The notes beneath the pieces were generated by a model that worked only from the letters and a program-made list of their open reading frames with translations, had not been told where the DNA came from and did no database searches. Of a stretch of 64,000 bases of DNA, positions 1-21,787 are shown piece after piece. Every line of letters starts with the position of its first letter. The first letter of the stretch is position 1. Made by a program: the position numbers and the translations under genes. The stretch comes from Eledone cirrhosa (Eukaryota): contig OZ024740.1 in NCBI GenBank assembly GCA_964016885.1, forward strand, positions 274,164,001 through 274,228,000, read 5' to 3'.

Positions 1-59
1 ATATATATATATACGTATATATATATATGTATGTATATATATATATATACATATATAAT

Positions 60-640
60 ATATTGATGAGCAGAACAAACAAACATTAAACAATCCTTTA
101 AATAAATTAAAAAATAATTCAAATATCTACCTGTTCATAATGCTATTACCGGCGGTTTCCATCCACAAAGGATTGGAAATTCAGAGAATTTCCAACGGAA
201 AGTAGATTTCTTCAGATAGCTATTTCCATTCTATAGGACATTTGTCCCACGGTCAGCAAATATAATGCTAACTACCAGCACGTATGGGCTATAGCCGTTA
301 CAGTGACCCATACGTGACCTGGCCACTAGAGCAAGCGGGAATATTATAAACTTGTTGATGGCTTGGCTGTTAAAAAAATAGCAGTAAGCAACAACGAATT
401 TTTTCTCTACATAGATCGGAGAATATATAAAAATGAGGTAAATATCTCACTGAGTACTATGTACACACTGAGATATATAGGGTGTCTATAATATAATTGT
501 TGTTCTATGGTACTAATTCGAGATACCAGAACTATAAATTAATGAGCAGAACAAACAAACATTAAACAATCCTTTAAATAAATTTAAAAATAATTCAAAT
601 ATCTACCTGTTCATAATAATAATTTCCAACGGAACAACAA
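60..640 (-). mobile_element. Non-coding hammerhead-bearing element (Penelope-like pLTR/retrozyme-like) with partial tandem duplication, in (TA)n
   Basis: 76-bp direct repeat 66-141 / 542-617 (offset 476, one mismatch); hammerhead next to the first copy; (TA)n on both sides; internal hairpin cacgtatggg...cccatacgtg. Confidence 0.6.
142..220 (-). ncRNA. Type I hammerhead ribozyme (complete fold)
   Basis: Minus strand: GCTAT-CTGAAGA-[stem II ATCTAC...TTGGAAATTC tct GAATTTCCAA...GTGGAT]-GAAA-CCGCCGG-TA/ATAGC; all core nucleotides and three stems present. Confidence 0.85.
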
Positions 641-641
641 T

Positions 642-700
<59 letters not shown>

Positions 701-704
701 GTAT

Positions 705-3304
705 AATGCTTTATTAAACAGTGCCATTCTAGCAACATAATTTTGATGGGAGACTTTAATCTACCCTGCGTCGATTGGTCTACATGTAGTTTGAAACCAG
801 GCTCCACAGCCTCAACCACTGACAAAGAAGCTGTCGAGTCACTTCTTGACTTCATGAAAGAGTTTTTCTTGTCCCATCTTGTCCTTGCACCAACGAGTCA
901 TCAGAAGAACATTCTGGATCTAGTGTTTAGTAACCACACTAACACTATACATAATATTACAGTGGAAAAAACCCTTCTCTCAAACCATGACATGTTTGTT
1001 TGTAACCTGAGATTCCACCAGCCGAAAGCCAATCCCAGGGTCCTCTTTCCAGCCCACCCATTTGATAACATGGATCTCCACAATGTCAACTGGGATGCAA
1101 TTATGAACGAACTGTCACATGTCTACTGGTCTTTTACACACGCACATACTTCCACCAACATCAAAACATCTTGGCAGATCTTTGTAGACACTGTCACAAA
1201 TATATGTACAAAACACACCCCACCAAAACCTTTGAACAAAACCAAGTGCAGTATCCCCCAAAACAGAAAAACAATTGTCAGAAAAATAAAAAGAACAAAC
1301 AAAAAAATTAACACACTAAAATACTGCCAACAGCAACACGCACATTCAATGGCTATCACCATGTTGAGTAAAAAAAATGTAACCTCCAGCAATGCATGTT
1401 GACCATCATCAATAACCAGAGAATAGCTGAAGAGAGGTGGGCCATTGAGAAAATCAAACTGAACCCCAAAGTGTTCTTCTCATTCGTTAAAAAACACAAG
1501 GTCACCGTCTCCACTGTTGGTCCCATAGTTGATGAAAGTGGCACACTCCAGGACAATGCCAAAACCATGGGCGAGATACTGCAGAAACAATACTGCTCTG
1601 TTTTCAGCAACCCAGATATGGCCAATCTGGGCCGTATCAGTGATATTAACCCCCAACACACTATATCAGACATAACGTTTGGCGCCCCTGATGTCTTAGC
1701 GGCAATAAACGATATTAAACACAATTCAGCAGTAGGCCCCGACAGGTTCCCTGCTTGTGTCCTGAAGGTGTGTCGACACCAACTTGCAACTCCTCTTGTT
1801 AATCTGTGGAGGAACTCACTGGACATTGGCTATATTCCTGAAAACTTTCTGGCCAGTCCGTTGTCCCAGTCTTCAAAAAGGGAAATAAGTCCATTGCAGT
1901 GAACTACCGTCCGATCTCACTCACCTCTCATATTATCAACGTATTTGAGAGGGTGGTGAGATCACGAATAGCCCACTTTCTTGAAAGCAACGGCCTGCTG
2001 AACTCCGACCAACATGGATTCCGTAATGGAAGGGACTGCCTAACGCAGCTCCTGCATCACTTTGACGATGTTTTGAGAGCCTTGGGAGAGGGTTCCAGCA
2101 CTGATGTCATCTACCTTGATTTCAGCAAGGCCTTCGACAGGGTTGATCATAAAATTCTACTGAAAAAAGTATCCAATGTTGGTGTCTCTGGAAGGTTACT
2201 ACAGTGGATCAAATGTTTCCTGACAGAAAGAACCCAGCATGTTGTAGTCGAAGGAGTAAAATCAAGCCCTGCCAAAGTCAGCAGTGGCGTCCCACAAAGC
2301 ACTGTGTTGGGCCCACTTCTTTTCATCATCTACATTAATGATATTACTGACATCATCAAACACAGCAACACCAGAATCTTCGCAGATGATTCCAAGCTCC
2401 AACGGGTCATCAATGAGGTGGGTGACCGGACTTGCCTTCAATCAGACCTACTGGCTGTTAACCAAAGGGCAGAGATGAATAATATGCTGCTGAATGAGGA
2501 TGAATTTGAACTAATCCACATTGGAAAAAAGGATGCCCTGAAACTACCACACTCTCTTCCTTCGGGTGAAACTCTAGTCGCTTCCAATAACATCAGAGAC
2601 CTGGGAGTAATTGTGGACAACAATATAATCTGGGCCACTCATACAAACAGCAAAGTTGATATGGCCCGCAGAGTGTGTCCCTGGATTCTCAGAACTTTCC
2701 AGTCGAGAGATATCCACATTGTTGTCCTTCTCGTCTCCACATTTGCCCGACCCCACCTTGAATACTGTTGTCCAATGTGGTCACCCCACACGAAACAAAG
2801 TATCATGAAAGTTGAAGTGCCCTAAAGGTCAATTACAAAAAATATAGTTGGCATGACAGGCCTTGACTATTAGGGTCGATTAGAAAAGCTCAAACTTTAT
2901 TCTCTTCAACGTCGCCGTGAGCGCTACATTATCTGTATGATGTGGAAAATATTCCATCAGCTTAGCCCAAATGATGTTGGCATCACTTTTAGTGTACACC
3001 CAAGGCTTGGGCCCCGTGCTATCCGCCCACGACAAAAATCCCACTCGCATCACATAACAACAATACGGCACAATTATTTCACCCCAATTGGCCCTGCACT
3101 CTTTAACATAACACCAAAACACACCAAAGCAGAGACAGACCCCATCGAGTTCAAGAAGTCTTTGGATAAATTCCTTCAAGAAATCCTGGATAAGCCCCCT
3201 ACACCCGGATATGCCTCCGTAAACAATAACTCTCTGCTCGAGTGGGCCATGATGCCCAAGCACTGATTTGTAAGACTTCACCAGATGGTGCTATTAAGTT
3301 AGAC
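705..3304 (+). mobile_element. 5'-truncated CR1/L2-group non-LTR retrotransposon, ORF2 (APE endonuclease + RT) disrupted by frameshifts and stops
   Basis: ORFs 743-1402 (MGDFNLP, LDLVFSN), 1396-1902, 1899-2825 (NYRPISLTS, YLDFSKAFDRVDH, GVPQSTVLGP, FADD), 2937-3266 (FKKSLDKFL); flanked by (TA)n. Confidence 0.9.
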
Positions 3305-5469: not shown

Positions 5470-5775
5470 TTAAAACTGCACTATTCACAAATACACTTGT
5501 GAATAGTGCAGTTTTAATATATATGTTGATTTAAAACTGCACTATTCACAAGTGTATTTTAACCTTCATATCATGTCTCCCTATTTTATCTGACGAAAAC
5601 GCAAATGTTATTGCATGATGATATTTGTTTTTGAAATGCGCATAATAAAATACATGGAACTCTTTTAACCATCTTTTGATCTTATATATTATTTATACTC
5701 CAGTCCTACAAACTGTAGAGTGCTTCTTATCCGATATCTGCATTGCTTTATTGTACTACAATAAAACTCACCTCC
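5470..5775 (+). mobile_element. Hammerhead-bearing non-coding element, same family as 20783-21191
   Basis: Near-identical to ~20950-21191; 5' end has repeated fold-backs of aactgcactattcaca; ends aaaactcacct before (TA)n. Confidence 0.8.
5582..5652 (+). ncRNA. Type I hammerhead ribozyme (complete fold)
   Basis: TATTTTAT-CTGACGA-[AAACGCAAATGTTATT gcat GATGATATTTGTTTTT]-GAAA-TGCGCA-TA/ATAAAATA; 8-bp stem I, long stem II with G-U pairs, palindromic stem III. Confidence 0.9.
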
Positions 5776-5830
<55 letters not shown>

Positions 5831-20750: not shown

Positions 20751-20789
<39 letters not shown>

Positions 20790-20817
20790 ATCAAAAGATG
20801 GTTAAAAGAGTTCCATG

Positions 20818-20888
20818 TATTTTATTATGCGCATTTCAAAAACAAATATCATCATGCAATAACATTTGTGTTTTCATCAGATAAAATA
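20818..20888 (-). ncRNA. Type I hammerhead ribozyme
   Basis: Reverse complement of 21000-21070. Confidence 0.88.
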
Positions 20889-20999
20889 GGAAGACATGAT
20901 ATGAAGGTTAAAAAACACTTGTGAATAGTGCAGTTTAAAAATCAACATTTTTAACTGCACTATTCACAAGTGTTTTTTAACTTTTATATCATGTCTTCC

Positions 21000-21070
21000 T
21001 ATTTTATCTGATGAAAACACAAATGTTATTGCATGATGATATTTGTTTTTGAAATGCGCATAATAAAATA
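21000..21070 (+). ncRNA. Type I hammerhead ribozyme
   Basis: TATTTTAT-CTGATGA-[AAACACAAATGTTATT gcat GATGATATTTGTTTTT]-GAAA-TGCGCA-TA/ATAAAATA. Confidence 0.9.
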
Positions 21071-21787
21071 CATGGAACTCTTTTAACCATCTTTTGATCT
21101 TATATATTATGTATACTCCAGTCCTACAAACTGTAGAGTGCTTCTTATCCGATATCTGCATTGCTTTATTGTACTACAATAAAACTCACCTATATATATA
21201 CAATTATGTGTATCTGAGTACATTTTCAAGTGTGTTTTTCTTTATTTACGCTTCTTTATTTCCCTTTCCCTTCTCTGTCCCATCTAACAGGCAGCAGAAT
21301 ATACTTTCAGTGAGGTCGGTACAGTTAGGGACGGTATGAGCTTTGACTTTTTGAGTGGGAATGGTAAATGCAGAGATTGTTTTCGGTTACATATTTACAT
21401 ATCGGCGCATTAATATCGTTATAATAAGACGTGATCCCAAATGTTGATGAAAAAATACAAAATAAATAGCCTACACTATAAAATCATGCTCGATCATTTT
21501 CTAAAATGTATTTCCGAAATTTTATTTAATTTATCTTTTATTTTTTATGATTGTAATATTTTTCATTTTATTTTGTTTTGATTCAGTTGCATTACTTCAT
21601 TCCGGCAACTAAGCTGGTAAATTGTTAACATTGTATGAAATCTTACATTACACATGGAATTGTATACTAATGCCTTCTTACTAATTTGCAATGACTGAAA
21701 AAGATAATTACATATGAAGACAAAGACAAAATAAATAAATTAAAAGAAAAGTCCTTTAGAATTTGAAAAGCTGTAACAATGCATATG

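Follow-up and report, generated by a model that had tools for sequence, protein, structure and literature searches.

Family A, a dispersed hammerhead-bearing repeat of Eledone cirrhosa with paired fixed 3' ends and a likely dependence on Penelope-like elements

Copies of Penelope-like elements (PLEs) are described as having one-ended tails, inverted 5' copies, and a bias toward (TA)n (PMC8557442, PMC3846280). For the anole PLE, PMC11167929 reports that reverse transcription has two internal start sites in the RNA, located 111-118 nt into the ORF; the hammerhead cut is at +26, and the tail is the stretch between the two start sites. In the in vitro work of that report, the same start sites were used on both DNA strands, hammerhead cleavage was dispensable for insertion, and unprocessed RNA was the main substrate. 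Mobilisation by PLEs was also proposed for retrozymes in PMC7229834 and 10.64898/2026.07.22.740005. Circles and cleavage have been demonstrated for metazoan retrozymes in these two sources, whereas family A, the repeat described here, is known only from genomic sequence. One copy of it lies near the start of the 64,000-nt stretch of E. cirrhosa DNA that was analysed (the window).

The window copy and its hammerhead

By its sequence, the window copy is a damaged two-armed insertion of family A. A sequence-only reading of the window had recognized a mobile unit with a hammerhead, present in about 1.2 units and inserted in (TA)n, and the layout bears this out, with (TA)n on both sides of a main arm at 57-617. 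The features are as follows, with the unit numbered from c1, the first base past the predicted cut.

1-60, no strand: (TA)n tract, the insertion target, which borders the 3' end of the main arm and extends leftward beyond the window
57-617, minus strand: main arm, a full unit and roughly 85 nt more (c6 to c89 in the following unit)
57-64, minus strand: short 3' end, about 85-90 nt past the cut, blending into (TA)n; putative reverse-transcription start site 1 (the end point of 109 of 197 segments)
73-136, minus strand, with a second copy at 549-612: long hairpin directly after the ribozyme, stopping about 15 nt ahead of the short end; the structure is also present in family B
142-220, minus strand: type I hammerhead whose long stem II is bulged and has an A.G mismatch at its base, and whose stem III is self-complementary; cleavage is predicted between 147 and 146
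423-428, minus strand: long 3' end site in an internal copy, some 200 nt past the cut; putative start site 2, at which 75 of 197 segments end but the window copy does not
442-478, minus strand: hairpin lying immediately upstream of the long end; its changes between families A and B are compensatory
618-634, minus strand: remnant of a second hammerhead, 14 nt of stem II (c423-436) followed by 3 extra bases, after which the sequence resumes at c6; the remainder is deleted
632-646, plus strand: stub inverted arm of 15 bp (c118-132), which has a 3-nt overlap with the main arm and continues into (TA)n
642-705, no strand: (TA)n tract, the flank on the opposite side of the insertion

The main arm starts inside stem II of the second hammerhead (c423) and has its 3' end at the short site. 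Within it, positions 58-141 recur at 534-617 as a direct repeat of 84 bp and 96% identity; the spacing of 476 had been read correctly, but the length had been given as 76 bp. The stem II remnant reported at 621-634 proved to be an exact 14-nt piece of stem II (c423-436). The inverted stub on the plus strand had been overlooked, and the second hammerhead is cut by a 43-nt deletion (c437-c5 gone, with 3 extra bases at the joint). Because the window copy has a single intact hammerhead, release of a monomer from it would be impossible. It is tallied below as single-armed, as its stub arm falls under the alignment threshold.

Other repeats were seen in the window. A 5'-truncated and frameshifted LINE with matches to APE (PF14529) and RT (PF00078) occupies 707-3266 and begins directly past the TA tract. 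A separate hammerhead-bearing repeat family occurs as a single arm at 5490-5790 (motif at 5590) and as a head-to-head pair at 20788-21190 (motifs at 20880, minus strand, and 21008, plus strand), both in (TA)n. The outer ends of this pair differ by about 80 nt.

The full type I hammerhead that had been claimed for the minus strand at 142-220, with its long bulged stem II, was found with all core nucleotides and stems. Its sequence has the CUGANGA core, GAAA, UH, stems I-III, and an open stem I. Stem I comprises 5 bp (220-216 with 146-142), the core CUGAAGA occupies 215-209, and GAAA occupies 159-156. Stem II comprises 6 bp (207-202 with 166-161) and a hairpin of 10 bp (195-186 with 182-173) beyond an internal loop of 6x6, while stem III comprises 3 bp (156-154 with 150-148). 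The G10.1-C11.1 pair is absent at the stem II base of the window copy, where an A.G mismatch is found instead. At this position, most family A copies have A.G, an older subfamily A.C, and family B U.U. Since an axolotl hammerhead motif with a U.U mismatch at the stem II base still cleaves, according to PMC7229834, A.G may be compatible with activity. Rfam models gave the hammerhead call no backing, with no match at the gathering score or up to E 10 and no other credible RNA family; the long stem II is the likely reason for this miss. The hammerhead fold (-18.2 kcal/mol) lies 2 kcal/mol above the MFE (-20.2 kcal/mol), and stem III is self-complementary (duplex, -11.6 kcal/mol). Together, these two properties would fit a dimeric ribozyme, a concept described in PMC4209133.

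The hammerhead fold exceeds chance. Pairing was seen in 97.7% of cells over 37 copies drawn from families A and B, compared with 31-44% in slid controls. Six of the 24 pairs are altered on both sides, and the covariation score was reached by none of 500 shuffles, a control inflated by the relatedness of the copies. Within family A, variability is 1.2% in the core, 3.9% over the whole unit, and 19.6% at the free N7 position. Between the hammerheads of A and B, the core is kept and stems I and II are altered compensatorily. By prediction, the 3' strand of stem I (142-146, minus strand) can alternatively pair with the foot of the long hairpin (68-72), and this option is kept in both families; as modelled, such pairing would turn the ribozyme off after synthesis of the hairpin. 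Two points weigh against activity: the stem II base is without the standard G-C pair, and, among retrozymes predicted in Xenopus, eight of nine did not cleave in vitro, as reported in 10.64898/2026.07.22.740005.

At least eight further type I hammerhead families were observed in the flanks of many of loci L001-L120, several with a long stem II and a mismatched base. One of these, at L061, is arranged in tandem with a period near 424.

Copies, fixed ends, and sister families

A DNA search of the 3.0-Gb host genome gave 2528 candidates, and for the 40 that were scored nearly all matches were 87-100% identical. Overall, family A copies have identities of 90-97%. When exact motifs were counted genome-wide, a 27-mer had 252 matches and a 26-mer at least 320, with 0 for the controls. 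The same-period copies on which the sequence-only reading depended are present; they are dispersed, with at most about two units per arm, and no long tandem array was found. The proposed unit of about 476 nt holds as the spacing in the window copy; the family period is about 478, mostly 477-479 in other copies. Family A is thus a dispersed non-coding repeat and not a tandem satellite. Its longest arms measure 958, 887, and 863 nt, a maximum of about two units. No array of more than about two units was found among the best 40 matches to a 1.8-unit query, in an assembly that may collapse arrays.

The unit contains no ATG ORF over 27 codons, and its 70-codon open stretch has no Pfam match. It has a GC content of 34% and no true LTR, and when folded as a circle its MFE has a z of -6.1 against 40 shuffles. 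A putative GT...AG intron at c16-90 was considered from the sequence and set aside; its acceptor AG is missing in most family B copies.

Copies were characterized at 127 loci. An exact motif close to the short end served to draw a 72-locus sample, which covers the first 100 of 320 places (C1, C2, and the start of C3), whereas the first 30 loci and L201-L215 were picked by score and are biased to long copies. Twelve duplicate rows for places already included were dropped, as was L079, a duplicate of the L078 flank. These two loci, about 150 kb apart on C2, have an identical insertion and 5' flank and represent a segmental duplication. Two complete hammerheads within one arm were found at 11 of the 127 loci, including L016 and L020 of the 72-locus sample, and these 11 could act as sources. 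Head-to-tail units with one type I hammerhead each and at least two complete motifs, the features by which retrozymes are recognized, therefore occur at some loci.

The 3' ends of family A are fixed at two positions. When 197 segments from the 127 loci were mapped on a tandem reference, 109 ended at c81-90, 75 at c193-200, and 13 elsewhere. The short and long ends lie about 90 and 200 nt past the cut site, i.e., about 110 nt apart, and each sits about 10-15 nt beyond a hairpin. TA followed within 16 nt at 171 of 184 fixed ends, and target-site duplications are unreadable inside such (TA)n flanks. Two opposed arms were seen at 38 of the 72 loci of the pattern-drawn sample. Among 65 two-orientation loci, the 3' ends face outward at 62, and most arm junctions share a few bases.

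The two ends are also paired. A short end was combined with a long end at 54 of the 65 two-orientation loci, compared with 2 short-short pairs, no long-long pair, and 9 pairs with an odd end; the rule thus holds for 54 of the 56 pairs in which both ends are fixed ones. In the pattern-drawn sample, 32 of 33 pairs with both fixed ends were short plus long (P = 2e-9 against independence). One-ended tails, inverted 5'-truncated copies, partial tandems, and a simple-repeat target, all hallmarks of PLEs, are thus found together in family A.

Two sister families show the same organization. Family B (467 nt, 1905 candidates) is 70% identical to family A, has ends at c87 and c192, and combines short with long ends at 11 of 12 two-armed loci, with arms of up to 1575 nt. 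Family D (496 nt in L243, 3306 candidates) is 63% identical to A over 245 nt and has ends at c94 and c201-213; all 8 pairs with both fixed ends are short plus long, and 6 further pairs have an odd end. Both families, of 467 and about 496 nt, keep the ribozyme core. A and B also have three hairpins in common within c1-200, with 6 of 54 pairs altered on both sides. At one locus (L194:1900-2330, the same as L221), a family B arm runs straight into family D, with the unit positions of the two roughly in register, which may reflect either a template-switch chimera or insertion of D at the end of B.

Mobilisation, templates, and alternative explanations

PLEs are abundant in this genome, with 10,596 GIY-YIG candidates that include an RT + GIY-YIG ORF. 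The link to GIY-YIG/RT ORFs for which a check had been suggested was not found: the unit was joined to an ORF at none of 50 GIY-YIG loci, taken from 150 listed matches out of the 10,596 candidates. An autonomous partner was sought over the retrieved loci by blastn, nhmmer, and tblastn, and none was found; nor do family A copies have an RT + GIY-YIG ORF between pLTRs, the arrangement of an autonomous PLE. PLE fragments near the copies are separate, and those on the same strand after an arm start 50-400 bases past its 3' end. A relative at L152 was considered as a PLE parent and rejected, being a separate insertion past a TA tract of about 230 bp and, at 70% identity, a member of sister family B.

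By subtraction from the positions given in PMC11167929, the anole PLE starts lie 85-92 nt past the hammerhead cut, which matches the short end of family A. Because family A has PLE-type footprints and a short end as far from the cut as the anole PLE starts, in a genome where PLEs abound, we read it as a non-autonomous PLE passenger. It was likely copied from RNA into (TA)n by the RT and GIY-YIG nuclease of autonomous PLEs acting in trans.

In the proposed mechanism, a source locus with two intact hammerheads, such as those found here, would be transcribed. The predicted hammerheads would cut the transcript, probably as a dimer, and the monomer may close to a circle, a step that we consider evenly balanced against the use of an uncut multimer. 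After nicking (TA)n, a PLE protein would begin cDNA synthesis at the positions now seen as fixed ends, about 90 and 200 nt past the cut. Each presumed start site adjoins a hairpin on its 3' side and coincides with a C-rich, U-tract, UAUA motif. A different start site would be used on each side of the DNA break, which corresponds to the observed one-short-one-long rule. The cDNAs would then pass the ribozyme junction, halt at variable points, and be joined head to head, often via a few shared bases. More tentatively, with a chance that we place somewhat short of even, this rule may be the footprint of an asymmetric PLE dimer that loads a single small circular ribozyme RNA at two sites, marked by hairpins and separated by 110 nt, and copies from both sides of the (TA)n cut, each enzyme rounding the circle. 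Hairpin and U-tract signals would then suffice for a parasite RNA without sequence shared with a parent.

The 5' ends are scattered, and their flanks have only (TA)n in common. In the 72-locus sample, 4 5' ends lay at the cut site against 1.5 expected (p = 0.07), and this nonsignificant enrichment was not accepted as proof of cleavage. Genome-wide, only 4 TA-to-cut-site junctions were found, against 0 for a control motif that is weak, as it was built on the window copy's own variants. Copies of exact unit length were likewise rejected as proof of a circle. An excess of 5' ends at c76-93 (8 against 3.7, p = 0.035, with several windows tested) was not counted because long-end arms stop there too; the site is a hairpin foot and TA-like. 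Scars of A-to-I editing were also considered; A>G accounted for 110 rare changes against 102 (p = 0.01, six classes tested), in a threshold-dependent manner, and the signal was absent among locus-private shared variants and was rejected as evidence.

Repeated parts inside one insertion differ by 2.9%, compared with 5.7% for position-matched other loci, and 120 of 139 pairs were closer. At diagnostic sites, tandem passes agree in 321 of 350 cases and inverted arms in 549 of 602, compared with 56% between loci. No difference between upstream and downstream units recurred more than 3 times in about 36. Given this agreement within insertions and the lack of a recurrent unit difference, the repeats would come from one template or one homogeneous source. 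A circular template for the arms and an uncut multimer appear about equally probable; a circle would account for arms longer than the unit without long source arrays. Two separate RNA molecules are a possible alternative as templates.

Several other explanations were weighed. PLE-driven insertion might have proceeded from the uncut linear multimer of a tandem source array, with no circle and no need of the hammerhead for insertion. Such a route accommodates the 81 of 104 arms that cross the cut site intact, the lack of a 5'-end pile-up there, the stop of family A arms at about two units (958, 887, and 863 nt), and the chief use of unprocessed RNA by the anole PLE in PMC11167929. However, no array of more than about two units was seen among the best 40 matches, yet the arms of L020 total 1458 nt and those of family B reach 1575 nt. 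In addition, 5'-truncating copying would shorten the sources unless the unit were read more than once, the recurrent unit-to-unit differences of a master locus are absent, and the ribozyme is conserved. We consider this route less likely than not. That the unit is merely a tandem pseudo-LTR terminating an autonomous PLE at its 3' end, with every copy seen 5'-truncated before the ORF, is very improbable. Arms of more than one unit enter another unit and never a common outside sequence, 108 loci have 5' flanks made up of (TA)n or of unrelated DNA, neighbouring PLE fragments are separate (50-400 bases past the 3' end, with a TA tract between in L152), and families B and D behave likewise. These observations stand against the PLE-like structure of the ends, the usual truncation of PLE copies, and the description of hammerheads with a long helix II in pLTRs (PMC4209133).

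An origin as a SINE-like or satellite repeat that LINE enzymes or DNA recombination spread and LINE-type twin priming inverted has hardly any likelihood. Twin priming does make inversions, LINE products also show 5' truncation and inversion, and a LINE with APE and RT domains adjoins the window copy (707-3266). However, family A has no poly(A) or LINE-like tail, and its two internal fixed ends are strictly paired. Moreover, the two arms overlap in unit coordinates rather than spanning successive parts, and the copies are dispersed rather than arrayed.

Comparison with known systems

As judged from genomic features, family A is likely a new non-LTR-retrozyme-like family mobilised in trans by PLE proteins. 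The retrozyme-like reading first made from the sequence stands in part: a hammerhead-bearing mobile unit in (TA)n was confirmed, the family proved dispersed, no ORF link was found, and the window copy would be unable to excise a monomer. A search of the open-licence literature found no account of family A.

What is gained is a set of insertion footprints at scale from three related units, with two putative start sites at conserved distances from the ribozyme, one for each side of the break. PMC7229834 and 10.64898/2026.07.22.740005, as far as their available text goes, propose PLE enzymes and circular templates without insertion footprints. A possible use of PLE RT in trans, a possible circular template, and any role of cleavage become assayable on one 478-nt RNA with predicted starts.

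Like the metazoan non-LTR retrozymes of these two sources, family A is built of non-coding units that run head to tail, each with a single type I hammerhead, and it shares with them a low GC content, a stably folded monomer, and PLEs in the same genome. Its 478 nt exceed the 170-400 nt given for retrozymes in PMC7229834 and fall within the 51-972 bp of 10.64898/2026.07.22.740005. Unlike the metazoan retrozymes described there, it is dispersed, with at most about two units per arm, and its very long stem II has a mismatch at the base. Family A also has fixed paired ends and inverted arms, which the available text of both sources does not describe for retrozymes.

With the endonuclease-bearing PLEs (Penelope/Poseidon, Neptune), family A shares partial tandems, an inverted 5'-truncated copy, and a one-ended tail (described in PMC8557442 and PMC3846280), as well as targets that are AT-rich or (TA)n and a first end that lies some 90 nt past the cut (PMC8557442, PMC3846280, PMC11167929). 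A hammerhead with a long helix II and a palindromic helix III is also common to family A and PLEs, as described in PMC4209133. In contrast to these PLEs, family A has no ORF, a tail of about 110 nt rather than 30-40 bp, and no match to the PLEs sampled here. The non-autonomous Chlamys PLEs such as MRC1, as presented in PMC8557442, resemble it in being non-coding, pLTR-forming, head-to-tail, and dependent on PLE proteins for insertion. According to the same source, they share 3' sequence with autonomous partners and mostly have no hammerheads, whereas in family A a hammerhead is present and no partner was found among the 50 GIY-YIG loci. The kind of element is already known, and family A itself is new. 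Its pairing rule goes beyond the identical start sites reported in vitro for both DNA strands in PMC11167929.
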